Shown here piece by piece: positions 5,601 to 60,937 of a stretch of DNA of 64,000 bases. The first letter of the stretch is position 1. Each line of letters begins with the position of its first letter. Both the position numbers and the translations under genes were made by a program. Under the pieces are notes generated by a model. It saw only the letters and a list, made by a program, of their open reading frames with translations, had not been told where the DNA came from and did not search any database. Source of the stretch: Somniosus microcephalus (Eukaryota); assembly GCA_052327205.1 (NCBI GenBank), contig CM126223.1, positions 57,908,001-57,972,000 on the forward strand, written 5' to 3'.

Positions 5601-5888
5601 TAACTAAAGAAATTTCACTTGTTTAATGACCTAATTTTTCCCAAAATTTTTCTTAATAGGTGATTTAAAAGTTACATGTTGACAAACATTTGCATCAAAA
5701 TGATAAATATTCTGAAAGTCAGAATTTAAATGAAAAATAAAATGAAGCCGATTATCAGAGCCTCCTAGAGCTTTGTATTGTACTTCATTGGCTGTAAAGC
5801 GCTTTGGGGTGTCCTGCGGTCATGAAAGGCGCTATATAAAGGCAAGTCGTTTCTTTGTATCTGTCTTCATTCCAGCTTAGTGTGCTAA

Positions 5889-6210: not shown

Positions 6211-6410
6211 TGGCTCATTGGTAGCAGTCACACCTGAGTCAAAAGGTTGTAGGTTCAAGCCCCACTACAGGACTTAAGCACATAATCTAGGCTGACACCT
6301 CAGTGGAGTACTGTACTGAGGCAGTGCTGCATGGTTGGAAGTGCTGTCTTTCGGACAAGACGTTAAACCAAGGATCCATCTGCTCTCAAGTGTATGTAAA
6401 AATCCCATGA
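6211..6410 (+). mobile_element. SacSINE1/DeuSINE-like SINE (5' part)
   Basis: TGGCTCATTGGTAGC A-box, GGTTCAAGCCC B-box and an ATCTAGGCTGACAC...GTCTTTCGGA..AGACGTTAAACC core. Confidence 0.7.
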
Positions 6411-6978
6411 GCATGTGTTGATTGCAAAGGTAAAACACAGTGAGACCATGGAGGCATTTAAAAGCGAGGATGAAAATGTTTAAATTGACTCGCTGGGGTC
6501 TGGCGGACCTTGGAAAGGATGGGGGTAATAGGATTGTGGGACTTTGTGGGTGAGATGTGGGCTGTGTTGTTGCAGATGAGTTGAAGCTTGCAGAGAGTTG
6601 AGGCAGGCCAGCTGAGAGCCTTGGAGAAGGAGGTAATGGCTTGGACTAGGATTCTAGTGGCAGAGGGAGGAGTAAAGATGGCTCAAGTTAGAGGTGGAAG
6701 AATGTGGCCTCGGATGTAGTTATTGGCCAAGCAGTGCACCAAGGTTCTGCACCTCCTGAGGCAGCAGTTAAGAAAATTGATCAAATCTAGACCGTGGGTG
6801 CCCTGTTGTATCAAAATATTAATGTTTGCTTTCTGTATCCTGTCAAGTATCTTGTATACTTTCATAAGATTTCCTAATGAACTCTAGCTTATCAAGCCAT
6901 TCCACACAGCTCATTTTCGAACACTGGGGATTGTCTTTGCACTCATTTGCACGGTCTCTAGGACCTGATGTACTTTAT

Positions 6979-7716
6979 GGGCCAGTAATCCCGGTCCCAA
7001 CGCGTGAGTACGGACGGGGTACTCGCGCGTGGGCCCGTTGGAAGTGCCGGATTTCAGCAGCGTATGCGTGGGAAACCGGCATTTCCTCCCAAGGGGTTCA
7101 GAGGTCCAACAGGACTCTGCGCTCACGCGTTGAACTTCCTCCTTTTTGACAGGTTTGCCCGTGTGTAAGGGACTCCACTTTTTAGAAATGTAAAAAGGAG
7201 GTGCAAGGTCTTGATTCTTTAAGGTAAGTGGTCTATTATTTAAAATTATAACATTTTTTCCACAGCTTTATTGTTTTTAAGGACTTTACAGTAAGGTAAG
7301 TTTATTTTTAGACCCGATTTCTTAAATTATTTTTTTCAAAAATTTGATTAATTGTTTAAAATAGTTTTTTAAAGTTATTTATAGTTCATTTAATTAGTGG
7401 GATGTTTTTTAAAATTTTATTTAAAGTTTAAGTAGTGTTTTGGGCGCCCGTAGTTTTCATGAGTTTGACAGTTCTTACTATCAAACTCATGAATGAAGTT
7501 TTCCCTCCCCTGATTGGCTGCCCAGTGCTCACCTGATCCCAGCTGGCACATCGAACTAACTACGCCGCTGGATCAGGCAAGCACAGCGCGCCGACAGCTG
7601 AACCGGGCCAGTGACAGGAATTCCAAGCAGTCCCAGGCTTCAGCTGTCGGCGCGCCGGGTAAGTGCACATCAGGGGCTTGCACGCGGGGCAAGCCCCCGA
7701 TCCTAATTTCTGGGCC
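6979..7716. mobile_element. Non-autonomous DNA transposon (MITE family A, PIF/Harbinger-like), oriented opposite to 22774-23528
   Basis: Termini GGGCCAGTAATC / AATTTCTGGGCC, flanks TAT/AAT. CpG-rich palindromic subterminal regions around an AT-rich core. Interrupts CR1-like sequence. Confidence 0.85.
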
Positions 7717-11434: not shown

Positions 11435-11850
11435 GCTCAGTGGCAGCACTGTTATGAGTCAGAAGGTCATTGGTTTAAGACCCATTTTAGAGACTTGAAC
11501 ACATAGTTCAGGCTGACACTTCAGTGCTGCACTGTTAGAGATGCCGTCTTATAGACGAGATATTAAACGTCTGTTAAGTGCCTCCGTCTGTTCTCAGGTG
11601 GGTGTAAAGGACCCCATGGTACTAGTCGAAGAACAGTATGGGAGTCTTGTCCAATATTTATCTCTCAACCAACATCACTAAAAACAGATTATCCAGTTAC
11701 TTATCTCATTGCTGTTTGTGGGACTTGCTGTGCACAAATTGGTGCACTTGCCTACAACAGTGACTATACTTCAAAAATACTTAATTGGCTGTGACGCGCT
11801 TTGGGATGTCCTGCGGGTATGAAAAGTGCTATATAAATGCAATTTCTTAT
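11435..11850 (+). mobile_element. SacSINE1/DeuSINE-like SINE (near full length, L2-type tail)
   Basis: GCTCAGTGGCAGCAC head, GGCTGACACT core and GTGCTATATAAATGCAA tail. Confidence 0.75.
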
Positions 11851-12710: not shown

Positions 12711-13446
12711 GGCCCAGATTTTGCCGTCAGTGGCAAAGTTACTGTGCTCGATGCTGACCTTTTAAGAAAGCTGCCCACAAAGATCTAGTGATCTCTGGTG
12801 TGGATTTCATCTTTTCAACATTAATTTAATTCTGGCACCATCTATAGGGGCTCTCTGGTGTCCAGCAACAGTGATGTCATCAAGCAGGCTAAGCAGCCAA
12901 TCACATTGATGAATCTCTCGGCCAGCAAACCAGGAAGTAAAAAACACTGATTATCCTTCACTTTTTAATCATTTTACAGAGAACGAAATAGAAATTGGGA
13001 CATACACATGGGATTAAGATAGAAGCTGAAATATCATCTTTTTTTTTTAAAGGTTATTTTAAAAATCTATGGGAATTTTTATCATGGAGAAATTTGACAT
13101 TCCACAAATATAAAATTAGTTTTTCAGGGCCAGAGAGGTTGTTCAACAGTAATTATAACTTAGTACGCTGCCAGTTACACCTCATTCAGCAAGGCTTATC
13201 TTTCTCAGGGTTTTTTACAGCAAAATTAAAGCGTAAAAAGTGGAGGTTAACGTCAATTCAAGTGATTTGTAAGATTTCCACCTGCGAGGACTTTCAACGG
13301 TGGAGGAGCAGGGTATTACTGACAGCAACTTCTGGATTTCCATATTTAAATGTGCATGTGCAGAAGCCAGAAGTTGCTGCCTGTTTCAGAGTCATGATGG
13401 CGAACGCTGACAATTTTGCCATCATTACAATTGCAAATTCCGGGCC
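12711..13446. mobile_element. MITE family B (GGCCC termini, Harbinger-like)
   Basis: TIR GGCCCAGATTTTGC / GCAAATTCCGGGCC with ATT on both flanks. Internal blocks are shared with the 25127 and 37392 copies. Confidence 0.85.
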
Positions 13447-13526
13447 ATTACATTATGCTACAGCATAGTTGATGCACAAAGGAACACTAAACATTTTAAG
13501 TTTACTCTAGAAAATCATTGTTAATA

Positions 13527-14045
13527 CAGGAAATTCTTTGGTATCCGGCGCGTTGCCGGTTGATCAAAAATTCCAGATGACGGAGAGGGTTATCTACTGA
13601 GGCTATTTTTAACAAAGAAAAAGAAAAAAATCAAGAAATGTGCAGTATACAGTAATTGGGTACTCACCTACAGAATGTTGTGTTAAATGGATGGTGGAAG
13701 ATGCTTGATTAAGTACAGTACTGCCAGTTGAGGGTAATGCAATGCAATGACTACCAGCAGCGTGGGAGACACACACTACCCCTGTAAAATGGCAGATCAG
13801 AAGAGACTACCGGCAGCGCGGGAGAGTCAGACTCCTGTTACAGGGGTATTGAGGTGTTCCGACTTCCGACAGTGCCAAGAAGCCAAGTAGTGGCAGTTTG
13901 GAGAACCACTGACTAACTCGGCCACTGCGGGAGACTCTGACTCGGCAACATTGCCGGTTATTGAGGTGTTGTTTTCGGAGTGAGAATTTTGCCGGTTAAT
14001 AGAGAATTCCGGCTATTTAGGTGCCGTTTAAACAAGAGTTTCCTG
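13527..14045. mobile_element. Tc1/mariner (pogo/Tigger-like) MITE, family C
   Basis: TA|CAGGAAATTCTTTG ... AAGAGTTTCCTG|TA, with a TA TSD. Confidence 0.85.
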
Positions 14046-14350
14046 TATTACTTAATGCTATGTTTTTGTTTTACAAAGAAATGCTGTTTCTCTTAGTTAT
14101 CATACATTTTATAGAACAATACCAATCAAAATTGCAAACCTTGCAACCTCATTTTTATTTGGTAGTAAGGTGCTCTGCATGCACAAATCAGAGTTATTCT
14201 CAAGAATTTATTTTACACAAACTCCTAAAACAATTGTTGGCTTGGTTTTAAAAACTTGGCACAAGCTCCCTGATAGTTCGGTGGGTTTGGCCTGTATGTA
14301 GCTGAGCCACTCAACCAGGAAGATCCCAGGTTTGGTCCTCGGACCAGAGT

Positions 14351-17169: not shown

Positions 17170-17730
17170 TGTAAAATAATAAGTATAGAAAGAAAATGAG
17201 GGAGAAATGTAAATGGAACAGTAGTGCAGCGGCTGATCATGAGCAAGATCTTTGGGATTATAGCGGATGATCAACACAGCATGAGCTGCAGTAAATGGTG
17301 AACGAGATGCTAAATTACATTAGTAGAGGGATGAAGTACTAATTGTATTGTTGCTTTATAAAGCATTGGTCAAACCTCACCTTGATGTATTGCGTGCAGT
17401 TCTGGCTTTCTAATTTATAAGATATTGCCCTTGAGAGGGTATTCCGATGAGCAACAAAGACAATTCTGGATATTGGGAATTTTAAGTTTGAGGAAAGGTT
17501 ATGGTTGTTGGGCTTTTATTTTGAAAAGAGCAGACTTTGAGGTTATTAAATTGAACTTTTCAACATTATAAAAGAAATTAACATTTTCCAGACAAGTATT
17601 TCATTCTGGTAAGGGGTTCAAATGTTAGCAATCACCAGTTTAAAGAGTTTGGGCAGGAAAGGACCATGGCAGCCCATAAGGAGATAATTGGATGCATTTT
17701 AGAAAAGAGAATGGATTGAGGAATATAGTA
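17170..17730 (+). mobile_element. Degraded CR1 fragment
   Basis: Encodes LYKALVKPHL and YCVQFW-like peptides at about 17355-17405. Confidence 0.7.
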
Positions 17731-18063
17731 CAGGAAACTCTTTATTATCCGGCACCAACGGGACCGGCTTGGTGCCGGTTTATCAAAAAGTCCGGATTAC
17801 AGCGAGGTATAGTTAAACGGTACGAGAGCTCCGTACATAGCAACAAATCCAGGCTTCCCTGTTGCTTAGCAACATGTGCAGGAACTCCGGCCACAGATCA
17901 AGCGTCCCTGTTGCTTAGCAACAAGTGCACAAACCCCAGTTACACAGCCACAGATCCAGGAACTGCCACTAATATGAAGTAAAACTTACCTGAACCTACT
18001 CCTGAATTTTGCCAGTTAAGAGATTTCCGGTTATTTAAGTGCCGGTAAATCGAGAGTTTCCTG
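17731..18063. mobile_element. Tc1/mariner (pogo/Tigger-like) MITE with family C termini and a different interior
   Basis: TA|CAGGAAACTCT ... AGAGTTTCCTG|TA. Contains a duplicated CCCTGTTGCTTAGCAACA and sits in the 3' end of a CR1 fragment. Confidence 0.85.
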
Positions 18064-19512
18064 TATGTAGGTGAGGTTGATCAATTTTTTTTTTAAGGGT
18101 CTTTTGTTTTGGTTTATTGCTTTTTCCCCTGTTCTGAAAGTTATGTTAATATTCAGGTACTGAATTTGTGATTATGCTGCTAGCCAGTGATAAGTGACAC
18201 TTTTTAGAAGTTCTGCCTTTCTGTCTCTTATTACACTCGCCATGTTGGATTCTTAATGTAGTTTTTTTCTTTTTTTTCTACCCCCCACCCCCAATGTTTC
18301 CCTGACTCTACAGTGTGGCACAAAGGAAATGTCTTGACCCAGAAAAGCATGCAATGCCTTTTCTTCATCTTCTCCCTCTTTGGCTGGAATCCTTCACTTT
18401 CTATCTTGAAGTGCTGCCACCATCTCCTTGCACTCTGCAGTCTGTCACTAGTACATATTTGATAGGAAAAAGTCAAATACTATGACCGTACCACATTTGT
18501 CACTGTGGCTGGCCCATGATTAATTTAGAGTGTGGTTATAACCCAACTAATTGAGGTTCAACCATAGAAACTTCACGGAGTCTCCAATTCGAAAATCAAA
18601 ACTTGCACTTAAATATACAGAGTAAAGCCCTTAAATGGCCTGGGTAAGGATGGAAAACCAAATGTGGTGCAGTTGGGCCAAATTACAATGTAAAATTTTC
18701 TTTTTCTGTCAATTTTCTTCCTCTCTCCTGAAGGCGGACACGCACAGTTCCATGAGCAACCCCTACTACCTTGCCCAATTGAGCATTCCTTATGGGTGAA
18801 CCTAAGCAGTGAGTCTTGGCAGGCTGTTCATCCATAGGAAACATCTCAACCCAGCTGAGCTGGAACCTGTCCTTGCCCAACAGCACAAGTACACACTTCA
18901 GGGATCATTGAATAGCAATCAGGAGTGGGAAGCTTAAAATTTCCTCCCTGACCAAGGGGTGAAGAGTCTAATTATAGTGCCTAGCTACTTCCCCCAAGAT
19001 CAGGCAATTCAGCACAGACTGGCCATTGAACTTGAGACCTTCTGGGTCTATATAGCACTTCACCAGCTGAGCCAGTGAAGCAAAATGTCAGCATTTTATG
19101 CCTCCTGAATGTATATTCCATTTTTGTTTACTTGAAGTTGTTCAATTAATGTAATATTTTCAATATATTCTGCAGAGTGTTGATTCATATTCCGGTAACT
19201 CTTAACCATTTTTTTGTACCTGTATACTGTTCAGCTGGGTGTGTCATTCCTTTGTAATCCAATATAAAGCGCATTATTCAGGTCACTTTGTTGCTCGTCA
19301 GCAGGTTTATTAAGTGGTTTTGGTTTTTATAGTACCTCTGACCTTAAACTGCAAAACTCATTGCATGGTGAGGTCAGTTGCTTTTTTTAAAAATCCCCTT
19401 TGAGTTTGATGAACATCATTCGTATGTAGAAAGTAAGTATTTTAAATTGCTTTGAGATTTTATGTTTAAGGAATTTATTGCAGGCATCCCAAACCATTTT
19501 GTTTTCTTGCAG

Positions 19513-22238: not shown

Positions 22239-22470
22239 TTCGAAGAAGAGCAGGGGAGTTATCCCCGGTGTCCTGGCCAATATTTCTCCCTCAACCAACA
22301 TAACAAAAACTGATTATCTGGTCATTTTCACATTGCTGTTTGTGGGAGCTGGCTGCCGCGTTTCCCGCATTACAACAATGACTCCACTTCAAAAGTACTT
22401 CATTAGTTGTAAAGCACTTTGAGACATCCGGTGGTCGTGAAAGGCGCTATATAAATGCAAGTCTCTTTCA
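22239..22470 (+). mobile_element. SacSINE1/DeuSINE-like SINE 3' half
   Basis: GAAGAAGAGCAGGGGAGTT...GTCCTGGCCAATATTT...GAAAGGCGCTATATAAATGCAAGTC. Confidence 0.75.
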
Positions 22471-22773: not shown

Positions 22774-23528
22774 GGCCCAGAAATTCGGGTCGGAGGCTTC
22801 CCGCTGGTGCAAGCCTCCGACCTGCACTTACCTTGCGTGCCGGCCGTTGAGCTGTGGGCCCCCGTAGAATTGCGATCCTGGGCCTCCTCCAACTGCCGGC
22901 GCGCAGTGCTTGCGTATCCCAGGGGCACAGTTAGTTCGATGCGTCCCCTGGGATCACGTGGGCCATGGAGAGCCAATGGTAGCAGGGAATGCTCCATTCG
23001 TCAGTTTGACGAAGAGCTGTCAAACCTATAAATACTATAAGCTCCAAAACATCACTAAAACTTCAAATAATTTTTTTTTTAATCACATTTTTAAAATAAC
23101 TATAAATTACATGAAATAACTATTTTAAACAATTTAAATTTTTGAAAATTAATTAAATTTTCTAACGGGGTTAAAAATAAGCTTACCTTTCTTTAACGTG
23201 TTTAAAAATAATAAACCTGTGGGGGGAAAAATGTTTTAATTTTAATTAATTCACCACTTACCTTGTTAAAAGCAGGCCTTGCGCCTGTTTTTACATGTCT
23301 AACTTCTGAAGACTTTTTTTTTCTCCAGGTTTCTCCGGGAAGGTAAGTTCAATGTGCATGCGCTGCCTCTCCCGCGCACGCGTTCCACCTCGTAACCCCT
23401 TCTTTCAGGGGAGCGGAAGTTCCGGTTTCCCGCGCATGTGCAGTGAATGCACGAAACCGGCACTTTCGTTGGGCCTACGCGTGAGTACCCCGTGCATACT
23501 CACGCGTTGGGACCTGAATTTCTGGGCC
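22774..23528. mobile_element. MITE family A (PIF/Harbinger-like)
   Basis: Perfect 13-bp TIR GGCCCAGAAATTC / GAATTTCTGGGCC with ATT on both flanks (22771-22773, 23529-23531). Confidence 0.9.
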
Positions 23529-26502: not shown

Positions 26503-26733
26503 AAAAGCAAAATACTATGGATGCTGGAAATCTGAAATAATAACAGAAAATGCTGGAAATACTCAGCAGGTCAGGCAGCATCTGTGGGGAGAGAAACAGA
26601 GTTAACGTTTCAGGTCGAACTGGGGGGGAAAAAAATGTTCTGACGAAGGGTCATCGACCTGAAACATTAACTCTGTTTCTCTCTCCACAGATGCTGCCTG
26701 ACCTGAGTATTTCCAGCATTTTCTGTTTTTATT
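26503..26733. mobile_element. Penelope-like element fragment (inverted pseudo-LTR) with a hammerhead-like core
   Basis: Inverted arms (ACAGAAAATGCTGGAAATACTCAG / CTGAGTATTTCCAGCATTTTCTGT) and a 15-bp TSD ACAAGAATTTATTAT (26488-26502, 26734-26748). CTGACGA...GAAAC at 26640-26665. Confidence 0.8.
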
Positions 26734-29072
26734 ACAAGAATTTATTATGATCTGTTAGTCTTCCTGTAGGATCATTTATGGTAGACAGACTTGCTTTTCT
26801 GCACACACACATGTCTTCATGAGTTGCAATCTATAAACTTTCAAAAAACATTATATAAAATGATCACTCCTAGTGACATAATGAAGGTATGAACTCAGAC
26901 ACCCTCTTTAATAAATAAAAAACATTACAGAGTGGGCAATCTGGGAGTATGCAGGACAAGTCCAGGAATTGCTCCTGTGTGTATTTATGATGCAAGCAAG
27001 CAAATGCATAGACTTGTTTTTTCAAGTGTAGCAGAACAAAGGACATCTAATCCAATGACATCACAAGACTGATGTCAATCTATGTCTGCAGTGCTGTTGA
27101 AGCACCAGAGATTGGATCATTTATATTTGGGAGTGCTGTAGACAGCACACCTTCCAAATAGTGCCCTTACTGTACCTATGCCTTTAAATGTAACTTGCTT
27201 TCTCTTTTCATGAGTTTAAAATTTCAACATAGTTATATGCTGACCCTAAGGTTGCCTCTTTTTGCTTTTATTTACTTTTGTGCTTGGTTAAGCATTGTGG
27301 CTGGAGAGATGCAGAATATCATTGATTCTGGCTGCTTTGTTCTGTGCCTTCCAAGTGCCTTAGTAACTTCAAGGTTACTGCAGACAGACCTTCATTCAGC
27401 TACTTAGCAAATTAATTCTGCCAGCGACTTTCTCGGCCCTTAGACTTAAATTGACTTGTTGCTTATTTATTGTGACATTCAGCTGACCTCATGAGCTGTC
27501 AGTAGTATAAGAAGGTGGCATAAATTATTGATTTGCAAATTCATCTCATCTGAATTCAAAGTTTCCAATTTCATGATTGAGTTTTTGCTACTTGAAAATC
27601 AAAGTGGCCAAATTAAAATAAGTATTTCAAATAATTAAATATCTACTGTAGTTTTCACTGATTTATCAAATAGTTTTGGAAACTGGCATTTAATCCGAGA
27701 TACTAGTTACATTTAATATCCATATTTGTATATCCTATTATTTTGTATTTGTTTTGTAGCAGCTATATTGAACAAAGTACTAATCAGCTTTAGAGCTGAT
27801 TTTCAAGTGCTTCCAGTTAAACCAGTCTGTAATCACCACAGTGGCAGCTGATCTCCTAATGCTGTTCAAACCTGATCTTTCAACTTGTTGAAACTGAAAT
27901 TAAAATGGTCTCTGACCAATTTCACTATTCTTGATAAAAGTAAGCGTCGTTCATAGTTTTTAAGCAAATACATTTTTTTAGCAATAATGAAATGCAAGTG
28001 TATTACGATACAAACTGGACTTGAAATTTCTACTAGTGCTCTAACCCCCAAAATTTGAATTGATGAAAAATTAAAATTATAAATGCCTTTTTTAAAATTT
28101 CTTCCAAGTATTTTCCCCTTGACTACTGAAGACACTGATCATGCTGCACATCAAGGTACTGGCCATTCTCTTGCAAATCAGTTTGGTCCTCCTTCATTTG
28201 ACAATCTGTGCATTGTCAGGCTATTTCACATGGAGGTCTTCACAATTGAGCCCATTACTATTCTCTCCTGATGACCACCCATGCACACTCTAGATCAGGA
28301 ATTAATGGATAGGAGTCAGGAGTGGGCGCCTTGGCTTATTTTCCTGTTTCTCTAGCCCAGGGGCGCTGAGGGTAATTGTAGCATTCCTACTGCCACCCTG
28401 GCTGAGATCAGCTAACTCAATACAGACTGGGAATTGAACTTATGATCTTCCTGATCTCTATGACTTAATTTCACAATGGCAGTTCATCGCTTCCTCTAGA
28501 AGGAGCTGATGTACCTTTCGTCAAGACATTCTTTTTGGAAGGCGCACCTATTTATTTTCTTCAGTTTTCACCCTTCTAATGAGTTGGCGTGATTTGTTGC
28601 CCCATAACATCTGCCTCTGTAGCAAGCACAGTGAGGGAAATAAGCTTGAAGAAAGAATGTGGCTGCAGTTATACATAGAAATACATAAAAGTTACAACAC
28701 AGAAACAGGCCATTCAACACAACTGGTCGGTGTTGCTATTTACCTTCCATGCTAGCAAATAGTTCAAATCACATTTATCCACCCTATTCCCATATCCCTT
28801 CAACCCCTTTTCCTTCATCCACCTATCGAGTATAATCTTGAATGTTGACATTAGTTTCTGCCTAGACCACTAACCCTGTAACTGAATTCCACAGCATCAC
28901 AATGTGTAAATATGTTTCGCTTGCTCTTTGTTTTAAATCTTACATTTAATCTTGTATCTATGGCCCCTCAACTACTAGAAACTGTCTGCTTCCATTTACC
29001 ATGTCTCACCCTTGCATAATTTTAAACACTTCTATCTGCATTGTTCTAATGAAAAAAATACCAATTTTTCAA

Positions 29073-29697
29073 AGGATGCGACTGCCACCAACAGCATAAA
29101 GCAGTTGTGCATGTGCAGTTCCAGTGAGTTTTTTTGGTTGTTCTTGCCGGACTTCCACAGATTGGTGAGAGAAAGGTGAGGGGTGGAAATTTCAGGTATT
29201 GTGGTCTGTAATGTGACTTGAAGGTGATATTAGGATGTTGTCAGCTTGAGAGTTTTATTGTAATCTTGCAGAGTGTTACCACTATCGGGTCCTCTGTTGT
29301 GGTTTGAACACTCGGCTGGTGAACAGAATGCAGGCGTAGGATGTTAGGATTTAATCGGTTGGTAAAAGGATCATTGAGAAATAGAGTAGACACACTGCGG
29401 AGAGATAGAGAGGAGCGCTAGACAAAGAATGGGGAGGGCAGAGAAGGAACGCGAAAAGAGAGTGGCAGAGGTATGATTAATTCATCAGAATGAACTGCTA
29501 AGACTTCCAGTACAATTTAACAAGGAAATGTGACTTGAAGGTGATATTAGGATGTTGTCAGATTGAGAGTTTTTTTTATTTTCACTATCGGCTCCCCTGT
29601 CTGTTGTGGTGAACGTTACTTTTTCAAATTTGGAACCTGACATTTATGTGCAGAATGCTTCTGCGCAGCTTCCAGTTCGTTGGCAGCAGTCACTCTG
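29073..29697. mobile_element. hAT-like non-autonomous DNA element
   Basis: 8-bp direct repeats TTTTTCAA at 29065-29072 and 29698-29705, imperfect TIR GACTGCCACCAAC / GTTGGCAGCAGTC. CR1 sequence continues across the site. Confidence 0.6.
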
Positions 29698-29959
29698 TTT
29701 TTCAAATCTGCTGTCTTATTTGTATTTCCTCCTACCGGTCAGCATCCTAGTGAATCTGCATTGTACCCTCTAAAGCCTCATAATCCTTCCTATAGTTTGA
29801 AGCCCAGTACAGGTACTGCGCATAGTGCTCTTAAGTGATCTTAAGGTTCTGTGTAGGCGCGTCATTGCCTCTTGGCTTTTATATTCTACACCTCTTGAGA
29901 TACAAGGTAACATTAAGTGGTATGAAATTAGGGTGAGGATAGCAAACTGGAATAAAATT

Positions 29960-30312
29960 GGTTTGAAAGAGTTAAGGGCAGTTTTTCCAGAGTGGTTGGA
30001 AGTGGGTAAATCTAGAACTCGGGGACACAGTCTCAGAATAAAGGGTTGTCCTTTTAGAACTGAGATGAGGAGGAACAACTTCTGGGGGTAGTAAATTTGT
30101 GGAATTCTCTGCCCCAGAGAGCTGTTGAGGTTGGGTCATTAAATACATTTAAAGTGGAGATAGACAAATTTTTGCAAGGTAAGGAAGTGAAGGGTTATGG
30201 GAGCAGGCTGGGAAGTGGCTTTGAGCCCAAGATCAGCCATGATCTTATTGAATGGCGGAGCAGGCTCGAGGGGCCAAGTGGCCTATTCCTGCTCCTGTTT
30301 CTTATGTTCTTA
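29960..30312 (+). mobile_element. CR1 3' end (younger, sense)
   Basis: SRTRGHSLRIKG.PFRTEMRRN and WNSLPQRAVE..SLNTFK.EIDKFL peptides, ending in a TCTTATGTTCTTAT tail. Confidence 0.88.
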
Positions 30313-31023
30313 TAAAACCTAGAATTCTTTTAGCTCTTTTGACAATCTTATCAACCTGAGGTGCTACATTTAATGTCCTGTGAACCTGTACCCCGAAGTC
30401 TCTGTTCTTCCACATCACTGAGCCTACTTCCATTCCAAGTTTAAATACTGTTTTTTTTAAACAAATGGGGTCACCTCACTATTACGGACATTAAATTCCA
30501 TCTTTTTAGCCAATTCCTTCACCTTATCGATATTGTTTTGCAGCTTCCTTTGGTCTTCTAAAGAATTAACTCTATCTCTTACTTTATTGGGGCAGAAATT
30601 CGGATCGGGGGCTTGCCACGCGTGCAAGCCCCCGATCTGCACTTACCTGACGCGCCTGCCGTTCACCTCCAGGGACGCCTGGAATTCCTTTTTGAAACAG
30701 AAGAATCCCGGGCAGCGTCTGACCTCACGCCGCCCAGGAGTGCAGCCAGCGCGAAGCCTGGAGCGCGCAGTGCAACTGAGACACGCCCCTTGAGGTCTCA
30801 GTTTAATAGGACACGCCCCCAATGTTTCTCACAAGCTGCAAAGCATTTTTACATGCAGAGCAGCATTTCAAATAGGTTTTTGGTATATTTATGAAGCTTT
30901 GGGTAACTTTTATAAACGTTTACATTATTTTGAAGAATCTGAAGTAGTTTTAAACAGAATTAAAGCAATTTAAAGACTTTTAAAAGCCCTGAAATTTTTT
31001 TCATTCCATTTATTTGGCAACGT

Positions 31024-31368
31024 CGTCGTCATACGTGTCTTCACACTGTTCCCTTTGGGGAACTGTATGAAGTGGTGGAAGGATTTATGGCCGTGATTAA
31101 AGCTCCTTCCGTGACCGTAACCATCTTTGTACCAGCCATTAGGGTGGTTAGTCCTATGGCGGGAGGGTTTTACGGGCTCCCACAAGCTATACGAGGAGGG
31201 GGGGGCCACCCACACCCACGGACGCAAATATCCCACTGGATGTCAACCCAGAATTTAAAGCCGGAGCTCCGACTCCACTTGCTGGGACTGTCTGGAGCGG
31301 GGTTCGAAACCCTACCCCGTCTGGCCCAGCGGCGGGGATCCTACCGCTACGCCAAAGGCCCACTCCGA
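31024..31368 (-). mobile_element. tRNA-headed SINE, copy 1 (CpG-rich, 3' hairpin and (GAC)n tail)
   Basis: On the minus strand: A-box TGGCGTAGCGG, B-box-like GGTTTCGAACC, tail GACGAC. Flanked by TT(G/A)GCAACGT direct repeats at 31014-31023 and 31369-31378. Confidence 0.8.
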
Positions 31369-31381
31369 TTAGCAACGTGAA

Positions 31382-31537
31382 ATGGCTGGAATGAGCACAA
31401 TTCACGGCATTAAAAGAACTTACAATTGAACTGATGATGATCTCAGCAATCTCCTCAACGAGGTGGAGGCGCAGCGCCTGCTCATCATTGGTAATGAGAA
31501 GTCCAAGGTGCTGCAAAAAGGACAGATGATAGCTTGG
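31382..31537 (+). pseudogene. Remnant Myb/SANT-like DNA-binding ORF (Harbinger accessory ORF-like)
   Basis: MAGMSTIHGIKRTYN*TDDDLSNLLNEVEAQRLLIIGNEKSKVLQKGQMIAW resembles the KR..NF(S/T)..EL..L..EV......LFG.......K..AW pattern. One in-frame TGA at 31427. Confidence 0.6.
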
Positions 31538-31615
31538 TCTTTCAAGTGGCAGCATAGGGCTCCAGTCACGGGGAGGGAAAAGGCACAGGAAACGTATGGG
31601 TGTCACCTTTTGCGC

Positions 31616-31970
31616 GGAGTGGGCCTTTTGCGTAGCGGTAAGCATCCCCGCCGCTGGGCCAGAAGGAGTAGGGTTTCGAACCCCGCTCCAGACAGTCCCG
31701 GCAAGTGGAGTCGGAGCTCCAACTATAAATTCTGGGTGGACATCCAGCGGGATACTTGCGTTCGCGGGTGTGGGTGGCTCTCCCCCCCCCCCCCCCCCCT
31801 CAGATGGGTTGTGGGAGCCCGTAAAACCCTCACGCCATAGGACTAACCACCCTAATGGCTGGTATGAAGATGGTTATGGTCACGGAAGGAGCGTTAACGT
31901 GGCCAGAAATCCTTCCACCACTTCATACAGTTCCCGAAAGGGAACAGTGTGAGGATACGTACGACGATGA
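31616..31970 (+). mobile_element. tRNA-headed SINE, copy 2 (inverted relative to copy 1)
   Basis: A-box-like TTGCGTAGCGG (31628), B-box-like GGTTTCGAACC (31672), 3' hairpin GTTCCC-GAAA-GGGAAC and GACGATGA tail. CCT(T/C)TTGCGC direct repeats at 31606-31615 and 31971-31980. Confidence 0.8.
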
Positions 31971-32069
31971 CCTCTTGCGCAATGCACCTCCTTGGACCCT
32001 CAGTCGCAGATGCGAGGGGGCAAATCGTGCAATTGTTAAATTTTTCATTTTATTGACATGTAAAATGTT

Positions 32070-33311
32070 GGCCCAGTAATTCCGTTCCAAACGCGTGAGT
32101 ACGGTCGGGGTACTCCCGCGTCTGGCCGGAGGAAATGCCGGTTTTCAGCATGCACAGCGCATGCGGGGAAAACCGGCATTTCCTGTCCTCTGAACGAAGG
32201 GGTTCGGAGGCAGAACGCGTGCGACTGCACAGGCAGCGCGTGCGCAGTAAAGTTCGCCGGTTTCATTCATGCTTTCAGTAAGGTTAAGTCCTTACAACTT
32301 ACACATGAAAAAAGCACGAGTACAGTTGCTCCAGAGGCTGCGGAGGAAAATATATTTTATTGTGGAGCTTCTGAAAGGCAATATTTTTGTTTGGGAAAGG
32401 GAGGAAAGTTATTTTAAGAAATGCTGAGGTAAGTTTTAAAGTTTATTTTTGTTTTTTAAAACGGGTTTTCAGTACTGTAGGTAGAAGGAGCAATTGTGGC
32501 TGTGAATTGAATTTGTTGTGTTTATTAAATGTGAAAATGACTCCAACATTTTTAAGAAAGAAACTTTTCATCAGTAATATATTCTTTTAAGTATGTATGT
32601 CTATATATTCCTTTACTTATGTGTATGAATGTATGTATTTCATTATGACTTTCAGAGAAAGTAACTTATTGGAAAATCATAATTAAATACATACATTCAT
32701 ACACAAGTAAAGGAATATATACATATACGTAAAGGAATATATACGGACATACATACATAATTACTTAAAAGAATATATTACTGATGAAAAGTTTATTTCT
32801 TAAAAATGTTGGAAATGTTACATTACTCATTTTAGAACAGTCATTTTCACATTTAATAAACACAGCAAATTCAATTCACACAGCCACAATTGCTCCTTCT
32901 ACCTACAGTACTGAAAACCCGTTTATAAAAAAAAAATTAAACTTTAAAACTTACCTCAGCATTTCTTAAACACTTTCCTCCCTTTCCCAAACAAAAATAT
33001 TGCCTTTCAGAAGCTCCACGATAAAATATATCTTCCTCCGCAGCCTCTGGAGCAACTTTACACATGCTTTTTTCATGTGTAAGTTGTAAGGACTTAACCT
33101 CACTGAATCCATGAATGAAATCGACGAAGTTCACTGCGCACGCGCTGCCTGTGCAGTCGCACGCGCTGTGCCTCTGAACCCCTTCGTTCAGAGGACAGGA
33201 AATGCCGGTTTTCCCCGCATGCGCTGTGCATGCTGAAAACCGGCATTTCCTCCGGCCAGACGCGCGAGTACCCCGACTGTACTCACGCGTTTGGAACGGA
33301 ATTACTGGGCC
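32070..33311. repeat. 1.24 kb foldback: inverted duplication of a family A-type terminus
   Basis: Arms 32070-32653 and 32672-33311 are reverse complements with few mismatches, separated by a loop of about 18 nt. Confidence 0.93.
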
Positions 33312-33526
33312 ATTGTCTGCAAATTCTGGCACCATTTTCTTTTGACCTATATCCAAATCATTGATGAACACAGTGAGCAAAAGTGGCCCCAGAACTGAAC
33401 CCTATGGGACACCATTACACACTTCCAACCACTCTGGAAAAACTGCCCTTAACTCTCTTTCAAACCAATTTTATTCCAGTTTGCTATCCTCACCCTAATT
33501 TCATACCACTTAATGTTACCTCCCAA

Positions 33527-37391: not shown

Positions 37392-38123
37392 GGTCTGGAT
37401 TTTGCGGTCAGTGGCGAACTAACAACGGTAGCTGTTCATTATACGTGCACTTGCCCACATTTTCTCTGGGCTTTTGTACTGGAATTTGCAGTGATTAGAA
37501 ATCCAAAACAGCTGATGGCTTCTACAGGGGATCTGGAACCTGTGTGAATAGGGCAAGTAACTGTATATCTCCTTAACCAATCAGATTGAAGAAACCTTAC
37601 TGAGACATGCAGCGTCTGAACCAGGACGCGCAAGTTAGAATAGATAATTCAATGCCAAATCATGTACAGAAAGCGAAGTAGAGAGATGGGATAAAGTGAC
37701 AGAGATGAAACAAAAAAGTTTAAATAAAAAAAAAAAATCTCCAACAATAATTAAAATCTGAAGGAATGAGACTCCACATTTGTAAAAGTTAATTTTCAGT
37801 GCCAGAGAGGTTGTTTGGCAGTAATTAAGACTTACCATGCTGTTAAAAATTCACTTATAAGTGAATGGACAAGCTCTAACATTTTTCTGACGAGTTTAGT
37901 GGGCAAGTACTCCATCACACCTTTCATGTATTTGAATGCCGAGTCTCTCGGCGAGATACTGTTTTATAGTGCAGCTTCTGGAGGAGCAGGGCAACTCGGA
38001 CAGCAACTTCCTGATTTCTGCGTTCAACTGCTCGTGTGCGGCCGCTGGAAGTTGCTGTCCAATTTATTCCTTAACGGTGAGCGCCGATAGCCTCACTGTT
38101 ACTTTTACCGCAAAATCCAGGCC
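37392..38123. mobile_element. MITE family B copy
   Basis: TIR GGTCTGGATTTTGCGG / CCGCAAAATCCAGGCC with ATT on both flanks. Confidence 0.88.
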
Positions 38124-50697: not shown

Positions 50698-51165
50698 ACA
50701 GCAGTAGTATTTCCAATGTTCTTTTAGCTGTTCTTTGAAACATACCAAACTGTATACATGCAAAATGTAACCACACGAACAATACATATGCGAATATTTA
50801 CATTTTATGCAAATGTATTTGGGCCCACTGCTGACATCCTTCCAGACAAGCTGGCTGGGTGTAACTAGAGATGCAGCATGATCAACAAACCCCTCTTGAA
50901 ATGGAAGAATGGTTGCTGTTTACGCCGAATGCAGACATTGGTGCTCTAACACAGCAACCTAATCCAATTGCAGGATCAATGGAAGCCCTTTTTTGGTGCT
51001 CGAGACCAGCTGGCTCTAGATTCCATCTTAAATTTTAAAACCCCATGAAATGAAAGATTTTCTCCCATTTGTTACAGGTTTTAGTACAGGATTCAAATAC
51101 TGGGTGGATGATTTTTATTCTGCAATTTAAGCATAGGTGGGTTTCTCCATCAGAAATATTTAATC

Positions 51166-51229
51166 GAAAGGCAAAATACTGTGGATGCTGGAAATCTGAA
51201 ATATAAACAGAAAATGCTTGAAATACTTC
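51166..51229. mobile_element. Short Penelope-like fragment, same family as 26503-26733
   Basis: GCAAAATACTGTGGATGCTGGAAATCTGAAAT...ACAGAAAATGCT flanked by ATATTTAATC direct repeats (51156-51165, 51230-51239). Confidence 0.7.
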
Positions 51230-58626: not shown

Positions 58627-60016
58627 GTATGCTGTTGCAGACATTTTGTCAAAGCACAGTATTAACAGGTTATTATATCAGTTTTGGTGTGGAATAATTA
58701 CCATAAAAGGCAGGAAACCTCGATGAGCGACAGAGTATGCATGCTTAAAGGTTGAGCAAATTAATCAGGACGTTAATGTTCCCAAAACTTTCTGAATAAT
58801 GTATTTATCTTCGTCTACAACAATGAAACTTGTACATCCTTGTGAAATGAAATCATTCATGTAGACTTTAATTTTTTTTTTAAACTTTCAGAAAGAATGT
58901 TTTCAAATCTTGCTAACTATATACAGGCTTTAGACAAATTTGCCAAGCAAGATCTGAATTGATATTGTATTCCACATCTAATAACTAAAGTGACTTTGAC
59001 TCCTGCTAGAAAACTGACCTTTTAATTTGTTTCCATTTTTGAATTATCAAAGTAATTGTGTTTAGAAGATAATTTTCAAATTTTTGTAGTAAAAATATGA
59101 ATGTCAGCAGTCATTTTTTGCCACCTCTACCTTTTTTGTGGAGGGGAGCAGAATAGAAAATGCACTGAAGTGTACATTGATAAGTTTAGGTAATAAATGT
59201 TCAAGATACGTATTCAGATCTGTTCCTTTATAGAAATTCCACTCTCGGGAGGAGAAAGTTACTCTCTCCTTGCTGGGATGTGGTTCCATGTGTACCAGGC
59301 ACTCGCTGGTACCTACCCCAGTGATTATTATTTATATCTGAGCCTTGAGCATGGGTGTTGACAAGCTGTGGAAGGCATCACATTCAAGCTCTGGCCTTTC
59401 CTCGCCCAATCTTCACAGATGTACACTTCCAATTAGCGTCTATGAATAGTGACCAAGAGCAGGAACCCTTCCCAACACACACAACTGAGGCCAATTGTGT
59501 GCTCACCACACATCCCCAGCTGAGTTCAGCACAAACTGGGGATTGAGCACTGCTGTATGTGTTTGTCCAATTCTGCTGTTTACTTTTCAGCATTAGAGAC
59601 ATACAAGCAAATCTGCCGTCCTTGCATATATTGTAGGAAGTGATTTATTTTGAAATCTGCATTCGACATTAAGTACTCAGAAGGTTGACAGCCAACCTTG
59701 TACTGTAGTAGAATTCAAATATTTATGATGCTTTGCAGAGTATAGAAGATACTGCAATGATCACCTAAAGCATAGAGATGGGGTATAAAGAAGGAATAAT
59801 TTACTTATAATGGATACGTGAGTGCTTTCTTCTAAAACTGCATGATTGATAGGTGCGGCCAAAAGTCAAGCCTGTCATTCTTTCAACCTGAAGGTTTAGC
59901 AAGATTGTAAACGTGTTTCAGTTGCATCTCAAGTTTTTATGGTTAATTTTCATAGTTTTTAGCAAAATACTGCACTCATACCATCCTCAGTACTATTTAT
60001 GATTCCATTCAATATA

Positions 60017-60554
60017 CAGGAAACTCTCGTCTAAACGGCACCTAAATATCCGGAATTCTCTATTAACCGGCAAAATTCATACTCCGAAAACAACACCTCA
60101 ATAACCGGAAATGTTGCTGAGTCTCCTGCGGTGGCCGGGTTAGTCAGTGGGGGTAGTTCTCCAAACTGCCACTACTCGGCTTCTTGGCGCTGTTGGAAGT
60201 CCGAACACCTCGATAACGGGAGTCTGACTCTCCCGCGCTGCCGGTAGTCTCTTCCCATCCACCATTTTTCTGTGTCGTTTACTGTATAAGTTTTGTTTTA
60301 CTGTTAAGTAATTAAAAGAGTTATGGATTACCCTCAACTGGCAGTACTGTACTTAATCAAGCATCTTCCACCATCCATTTAACACAACATTCTGTAGGTG
60401 AGTACCCAATTACTGTATACTGCACATTTCTTGATTTTTTAATTTTTGTTTGTTTAAAAATAGCCTCGGTAGATAACCCTCTCCGTCACCTGGAATTTTT
60501 AATCAACCGGCACCATCCCGGTCCCGTCGGTGCCGGATACCAAAGAGTTTCCTG
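60017..60554. mobile_element. Tc1/mariner (pogo/Tigger-like) MITE, family C, inverted copy of 13527-14045
   Basis: TA|CAGGAAACTCTC ... AAAGAGTTTCCTG|TA. Long blocks are reverse complements of 13527-14045. Confidence 0.88.
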
Positions 60555-60937
60555 TATATTAAGATATCCCTGTATATTAAGATATCTGCAATCCATCTAT
60601 AGTGTGACCAGTTGACAACTACTTTTAATCAGCTTGATTTTCATTATTCAAGTGAGGTTTTGGAATGACTTCTGTTATTGACTTGCCTATTAGCCACTTA
60701 AAATGTAATAAATATTGCCTTTGGTTAATTTTCTTGACCTTTGAGTGAAATTGATTACGGTAAAGTGTGAGGCATTTTACAATGATCCTCTGTCTGACTG
60801 TCCAGTTGGAAGTGAGCAATATGAACTGAATTTGGATAAATTTTAAATGTATATACGACTGAAATATTTTAAGTCACTGTAAAGCCTGAAATGGTTTATA
60901 TTGCTCTGATTATGTTTTTTGTTTGCCCTTTTAACAG

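Follow-up and report, generated by a model that had tools for sequence, protein, structure and literature searches.

A composite of a PHIS-like transposon, two SINEs and a palindromic element inside a decayed LINE of Somniosus microcephalus

Background

When retroelements and a DNA transposon are interleaved at one locus, did the transposon carry the retroelements there, or did each piece arrive on its own? This question is raised by a block of 2,723 nucleotides (nt), at positions 30589-33311 of a 64-kb stretch of Somniosus microcephalus DNA (assembly GCA_052327205.1, contig CM126223.1, positions 57,908,001-57,972,000, forward strand). This stretch is hereafter the window, and our statements on the copy number of the block, its junctions, its SINE and its foldback refer to it. 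The block lies inside a decayed fragment of a CR1-like long interspersed element (LINE), in an apparent intron of an NLK-like gene, and it holds the left part of a DNA transposon, two short interspersed elements (SINEs) in opposite orientation and a 1.24-kb foldback. A preliminary description had proposed a Harbinger-like element that moved as one unit with its SINEs as cargo. We give an even chance to a stepwise history, in which the block would be a non-autonomous, three-ended (L ... R' ... R) PHIS derivative with AWT/ANT-type target-site duplications (TSDs), built up by serial nesting and then moved once by a hybrid pair of ends.

According to Han et al. (PMC4482050), the PIF/Harbinger group duplicates a TWA target and has a Myb/SANT open reading frame (ORF), while the Pangu group of PHIS duplicates ANT and has termini starting with AG or GG; the second Pangu ORF is given there as having no known motif, and no vertebrate is named among the 15 Pangu genomes. 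Sea kraits harbour single-ORF and short non-autonomous Harbinger variants (PMC8437027), and PIF-Harbinger or Tourist/Harbinger types have been reported from the whale shark and the grey reef shark (PMC8455134, PMC12498223); a teleost survey states that more cartilaginous species need analysis. In MER6, a SINE retrotransposed into a Mariner-derived MITE (miniature inverted-repeat transposable element) and the composite was then amplified to hundreds of copies (PMC6887750); because of this precedent, the spread of a SINE by a DNA transposon is not new in principle.

Results

Three transposon ends in one block

The block begins with GGGGCAG after an ATT (30586-30589) and ends with CTGGGCC before another ATT (33311-33314). 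On inspection of these borders, the left ATT (30586-30588, plus strand) is a putative TSD of the whole block, matched on the right at 33312-33314 (plus strand). The outer termini agree at 10/13 nt and start with GG, and three termini are present in all: a left end (L), an inner inverted right end (R') and an outer right end (R).

The left part of the host transposon occupies 30589-31013 (plus strand). It includes the terminal repeat, a stretch of about 100 nt with homology to the left ends of the 740-755-nt elements of the window, and a small internal palindrome (30603-30637) followed by unrelated GC-rich and AT-rich sequence. Over these first ~100 nt, identity to the left ends is 82-84% for the elements at 22774-23528 (plus strand) and 6978-7716 (minus strand), with z scores of 28 and 34 relative to block shuffles. 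Neither element is matched significantly by the following 150 nt or by the AT-rich spacer, and a match of the spacer that was apparent under mononucleotide shuffles was gone under block dinucleotide shuffles. Since the interiors are non-homologous under these block-wise shuffles, the 'family A' to which the preliminary description had assigned the left terminus is a sister family only: the assignment holds over ~100 nt and fails beyond, and full membership was rejected, homology being limited to ~100 nt on the left and 250 nt on the right. The general anatomy that had been described (left terminus, minus-strand SINE, plus-strand SINE, 1.24-kb foldback and ATT flanks) is real. The last segment of host interior, at 31981-32069 (plus strand), ends in GTT (32067-32069), an ATT-like site adjoining the inner terminus of the foldback. 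A hexamer, CTTACC, recurs (e.g. 30642, 32950): each of the three left ends has it at position 54, and it is also present within the elements and in the arm. It might serve as a binding motif or represent a splice donor in reverse.

Target sites and classification of the ends

Six related elements with GG(C/G)(C/G/T)-type termini have both ends located. Four are flanked by ATT/ATT, one by ATT/ATA and one by AAT with a decayed right end; TWA on both sides is found in 0/6. The block itself, flanked by ATT/ATT, lacks the TWA duplication of canonical PIF/Harbinger elements, and its short terminal inverted repeats (TIRs; 10/13 nt, GG) begin with A or G as those of PIF/Harbinger do. ATT flanks, taken as a putative duplication, and GG termini are both of the Pangu type (ANT, AG/GG). 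Judged on these letters, the ends would fit PHIS ends, and Pangu better than canonical PIF/Harbinger. The preliminary description spoke of a Harbinger-like element; the short TIRs and the putative 3-nt duplication are of PHIS type, and the site, ATT and not TWA, fits Pangu rather than canonical PIF/Harbinger.

Outside the block, five terminal-repeat elements of 700-755 nt (6978-7716, 22774-23528, 12711-13446, 25127-~25820 and 37392-38123) fall into two families; their ends are of the GGCCCAG type and their flanks, read left to right, are mostly ATT, a preference for ANT/AWT over TWA. A third terminal-repeat family, with TACAGGAAA ends, is present at 13524-14048, 60014-60557 and 17729-18066; in the copy at 60.5 kb, 18 nt are tandemly duplicated at the end.

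Two independently inserted SINEs

SINE copy 1 (31024-31368, minus strand; A box at 31354) is composed of a head with A and B boxes, a C-rich middle, 3' stem-loops and a short tail of GAC-type repeats. Copy 2 (31616-31969, plus strand; A box at 31628), of the same family, aligns with it in inverted orientation in self-comparison (31022-31367 versus 31615-31971) and differs from it at 31/343 columns (9.0%, 95% confidence interval (CI) 6.2-12.6). The minus-strand copy is enclosed by a TSD at 31014-31023 and 31369-31378 (9/10 nt matching) and the plus-strand copy by another at 31605-31615 and 31970-31980 (10/11 nt matching), with 2/21 nt differing in total. These TSDs were absent from the preliminary description and lie exactly at the SINE ends; random window pairs, from which such an exact position was not demanded, reached the same scores in 6/150 (9/10) and 5/150 (10/11) trials. 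The separate TSD on each SINE means two independent retrotransposition events and not a duplicated cassette; the two copies are ordinary retrotransposition insertions into the host element. A single inverted duplication was rejected as the origin of the pair, because the TSDs differ and similarity ends at the SINE ends. The words cargo and cassette, as they had been applied to the block, are therefore too strong: the SINEs came separately, each with its own TSD, and the foldback has the look of a nested MITE.

The copies have the characters of a SINE2 element, namely an internal Pol III promoter at the 5' end, TSDs and a short GAC-type repeat tail after a stem-loop. Two A/B-box pairs with at most one mismatch per box were observed in the block, versus a mean of 0.007 in 300 shuffles; the 3' stem-loops are strong (z -3.8 and -4.5) and the heads fold at z ~-2.2, without a full cloverleaf. 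ARAGORN called no tRNA gene in the window, SINE heads included, and none of nine weak Rfam matches was to a tRNA; because of this the tRNA origin of the SINEs rests on the A and B boxes. The nine Rfam matches, to microRNA hairpins, were all far under gathering scores and were rejected as generic hairpins.

An nhmmer profile search found no third copy of the family in the window, and a distance of ~250 nt between both copies of 64 kb has a probability of ~0.8% under uniform placement, a post hoc figure. Confinement of the pair to the block fits import from elsewhere. A different SINE-like family with a common 3' tail has copies at 5780-5848, 11641-11842 and 22267-22463, which we take to resemble Deu-domain SINEs, and an additional A/B-box pair is present at 6211.

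A palindromic element with two right-type ends

The palindromic element occupies 32070-33311 (1,242 nt) and has two right-type transposon ends; its arms, 32070-32653 and 32672-33311, are separated by an 18-nt loop, are mismatched at 27/582 aligned columns (4.6%, 95% CI 3.1-6.7) with several indels, and have a predicted fold energy of -976 kcal/mol. Over its outer ~250 nt, each arm shares ~75% identity with the right ends of both the 22774-23528 and the 6978-7716 element. Only 2/130 positions differ in the outer 130 nt of the arms, versus 13-14 per 130 nt in other stretches.

R' starts exactly at the terminal repeat, a point that the preliminary description did not contain. The flanks of the foldback are GTT (inner) and ATT (outer), with one mismatch, a single transition separating the inner GTT from ATT; the inner flank does not mirror the outer one. 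The exact start of R' and the non-mirror flank together mark a precise-cut junction, which is the signature of a transposase, and for the second reason a duplication running into the flank was rejected. The foldback, to judge from its junctions, is probably a younger nested MITE which inserted ready-made into the host; no second copy of the inner arm was found in the window. As an intronic element it would give the pre-mRNA ~580 bp of predicted double-stranded RNA (dsRNA), a by-product of its palindromic form with no function implied.

The centre of the foldback (32648-32662) contains a mini-hairpin, whose 6 bp are perfectly matched around a loop of 3 nt; a short stretch after it is unpaired, and the arrangement suggests a snap-back origin. 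A 22-nt tandem duplication is found at 32703-32744. A 204-nt palindromic repeat is present at 26533-26736, with a partial relative at 51158-51227; foldback repeats are therefore not rare in this genome.

The insertion site

Exons can be placed near 6.0, 12.4, 19.5, 24.7, 55.4, 56.1 and 58.6 kb by short plus-strand kinase motifs, in a gene that we presume to be NLK from its TQE activation-loop word. By their positions the block is intronic and the intron measures ~30 kb, which points to a location within a ~30-kb intron of an NLK-like gene.

The CR1-like reverse transcriptase (RT) reading runs on the minus strand from 33521 to 33312 and picks up at 30588, across the block. The two parts of the decayed LINE are thus 33312-33521, upstream of the insertion point, and 30311-30588, downstream of it (both minus strand). 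We take this reading to be CR1 from its motifs, Pfam, PDB and protein searches having given no match; an intact CR1 reference was likewise not matched in protein searches (212 and 94 candidates among longer proteins) or in PDB, so that the label rests on motifs which we assume. The same holds for the remark that, with a single ATT kept, the RT reading is one codon shorter than what we take to be the RT motif. The frame stays open with one ATT kept or with both and therefore cannot test the 3-nt duplication. Continuity of the CR1-like reading to within ~3 nt across the block is supported; the exact rejoining of the frame that had been claimed does not follow from it.

The fragment is broken a second time at 29905-30310, and the minus-strand reading resumes left of 29905. 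This interruption consists of the 3' end of a plus-strand CR1 and, ahead of it, an inverted copy (105 nt) of 33415-33521 with a microhomology joint; the copy shows 1 substitution in 105 and one 2-nt indel, much less than the LINE is decayed, and the insert looks locally templated. The duplicate (1/105 different) was dropped as a clock for the arrival of the block, as it has no evident tie to the insertion. A 50-nt direct repeat (96%), at 29210-29259 and 29527-29576, lies immediately left of the CR1 fragment.

Coding traces

Host interior with a broken reading lies between the SINEs (31379-31604, plus strand; ATG at 31382, in-frame stop at 31427-31429, that is at codon 16). Its resemblance to Myb/SANT, seen by eye, spans 31382-31540, and the frame from 31382 looks like what we take to be the first helix of Harbinger Myb/SANT-like proteins, which no search confirmed. 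Three readings gave no Pfam family at E<=10, and phmmer gave no hit at E<=0.001 among 1.84 billion representative proteins; these negatives are weak because the fragment is decayed and has 53 residues. Harbinger Myb/SANT-like proteins were found to be very divergent in a teleost survey (PMC9179366). The Myb-like remnant of the preliminary description is thereby reduced to a resemblance by eye. Elsewhere in the window, 145 stop-to-stop frames of >=70 residues were scanned, outside the exons and 31370-31620; none matched DDE_Tnp_4 or Myb, and 9/145 gave Pfam matches at E<=0.05, none of which reached the curated cut-off.

Assembly of the block

In the stepwise history to which we give an even chance, two copies of one tRNA-headed SINE were first inserted independently into the host element by target-primed reverse transcription, a step that their separate TSDs show. 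A younger palindromic MITE of two right ends would then have been inserted by a transposase at the ATT-like site 86 nt past the second SINE, and a transposase supplied in trans may have paired the host left end with the far end of the MITE. Everything between these ends would have moved into the old CR1 fragment in the NLK-like intron, ATT being duplicated and the rest of the host left behind; the SINEs would have been passive passengers.

The CR1-like reading resumes directly past the foldback, with no other host right end in between, which is how the right part of the host is seen to be missing; either L and R were co-mobilised or the remainder was deleted in place. Three clocks, namely the divergence of the arms versus that of the SINEs, the outer 130 nt and the SINE spacing, favour co-mobilisation weakly. 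Arms (27/582) and SINE pair (31/343-345) differ in mismatches at all sites (Fisher p = 0.011), and the SINEs are probably older than the foldback, in which case they were aboard at any later move. The 2/130 differences of the outer arms have P = 0.014 if 6% is expected and 0.065 if 4.5% is expected, which argues against a right arm recombined from a host as old as the SINEs (>=6% expected).

Several observations weigh on the other side. At non-CpG sites the age difference is not significant (20/518 vs 18/288, p = 0.16); arm divergence is patchy (2 vs 13-14 per 130 nt), so the clock may be distorted by arm-to-arm conversion; and two subfamilies could be behind the SINE pair, inflating its distance. 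The left terminus differs from the right at 3/13 nt. ATT flanks, since ATT/ATT is found in 4/6 related elements, are expected under every model and do not discriminate between ways of assembly. No second copy of the interior or of the internal junctions is present within the window, and transposase or Myb homology was not demonstrated by Pfam, phmmer or the frame scan. Movement of the block as one unit, as the preliminary description had it, is thus plausible and slightly favoured by the resumption of CR1, the missing host right part and the 2/130, and is held back by the single copy in the window. We rate amplification into a family below a single move and hold it to be rather doubtful. It is improbable that the block is a copy of an amplified three-ended Pangu/Harbinger-type family which, by cut-and-paste, would spread two intact Pol III SINEs of divergent orientation as source copies, together with a perfect dsRNA hairpin of 580 bp, reseeding SINE masters and planting ADAR substrates in introns.

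Nothing need have been carried if the host landed in CR1, the SINEs and then the MITE inserted into or beside it, and the host right part was deleted, either because the right arm of the MITE recombined with the host right end or because an R-ATT-R' hairpin lost one arm. Taken as a whole, assembly in place is the leading alternative; we rate it as rather unlikely, with much at the locus that agrees with it: serial nesting is evident (CR1 is interrupted twice, and each SINE has its own TSD), ATT flanks are generic for the clade, the block is single in the window, and nested insertions in single PIF/Harbinger copies have been reported (PMC2213677). Recombination, however, should leave the outer right arm more diverged, yet this is the most similar part (2/130), unless conversion homogenised it; a non-homologous deletion must end exactly at the host ATT among ~60 ATT/AAT sites per kb; and the SINE, which the other 61 kb lack, must have landed twice, 250 nt apart (~0.8% if uniform, post hoc). 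There may also never have been a separate MITE, the right arm being the host right end and the left arm its inverted duplicate, made by snap-back repair or by sister-chromatid (alternative) transposition. Both related elements do pair a left-type end with a right-type end like the arm, and the central mini-hairpin is typical of snap-back synthesis; we nevertheless consider this origin quite improbable, since a symmetric fold-back and a junction at the terminal repeat by an ATT-like site would be two precise events at once, and the palindromic Harbinger families known elsewhere are a simpler source (PMC5625713).

The SINE pair, finally, would reflect targeting and not carriage if the SINE, via its partner LINE, preferred this transposon family as a target. 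Comparable targeting is known from Xenopus, where Tx1L inserts into Tx1D. Both window copies (2/2) lie within one host interior of 750 nt and both TSDs start with AC in SINE orientation, matching the tail repeat, a tail-target microhomology that is ordinary for retrotransposition; the two target sites differ in sequence, however, and the SINE is found in 0/5 of the other related terminal-repeat elements of the window, so that we regard targeting as very unlikely.

Discussion

The meaning of the block depends on whether its junctions recur elsewhere. If they do, vertebrates would have in it a clean second example, following MER6, of SINEs that ride a DNA transposon, with intact promoters, and the Harbinger superfamily an example of hybrid-end transposition; if they do not, a large intron would have collected nested insertions in the ordinary way, and the block would have no bearing on the function of the gene. 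Should ANT duplication and a Myb-like ORF both hold, a vertebrate PHIS lineage mixing traits of different groups would be indicated. The ATT-duplicating elements, common in the window, would be of use in the curation of cartilaginous-fish repeat libraries.

The exact architecture of the block was not found described in the titles and abstract openings that our literature search covered, most subscription papers being outside its scope. Three- and four-ended elements with an extra internal inverted terminus are known in the hAT elements double-Ds and sesqui-Ds of maize, for which the same search gave no match. The accessible text of PMC5753468 and PMC5786205 contains nothing specific to the block.

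With PHIS and Pangu elements (PMC4482050) the block shares short TIRs starting with GG, a 3-nt duplication and the existence of non-autonomous derivatives; it differs in having ATT versus the canonical TWA, and a Myb-like look by eye versus the second Pangu ORF, motif-less in the text available. MER6/MER6A, a Tc1/Mariner MITE with a V-SINE (PMC6887750), is alike in that a deletion-derived DNA transposon received a SINE by retrotransposition, whereas our block has PHIS-like ends, ATT flanks, two full-length divergent SINEs with intact TSDs and a third, internal terminus, and is known from one copy. The composite or nested PIF/Harbinger copies MtPH-M-2-IIa and MtPH-A6-4-IIa of Medicago truncatula (PMC2213677) also hold nested retroelements, or two related elements inside one pair of TIRs and TSDs; they are from a plant, their retroelement is a gypsy LTR element (long terminal repeat) and not a SINE, and a long foldback is not described in the accessible part of that article. 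The palindromic Harbinger repeat of Xenopus tropicalis (PMC5625713) is self-complementary like our foldback and forms tight dsRNA in transcripts, with heavy ADAR editing; it measures ~200 bp and stands alone, whereas the foldback has 1,242 nt, is nested and is known from its sequence. Every ingredient of the block, and the principle of carriage itself, therefore has a precedent, in SINE-in-MITE composites, nested PIF/Harbinger composites and palindromic Harbingers.

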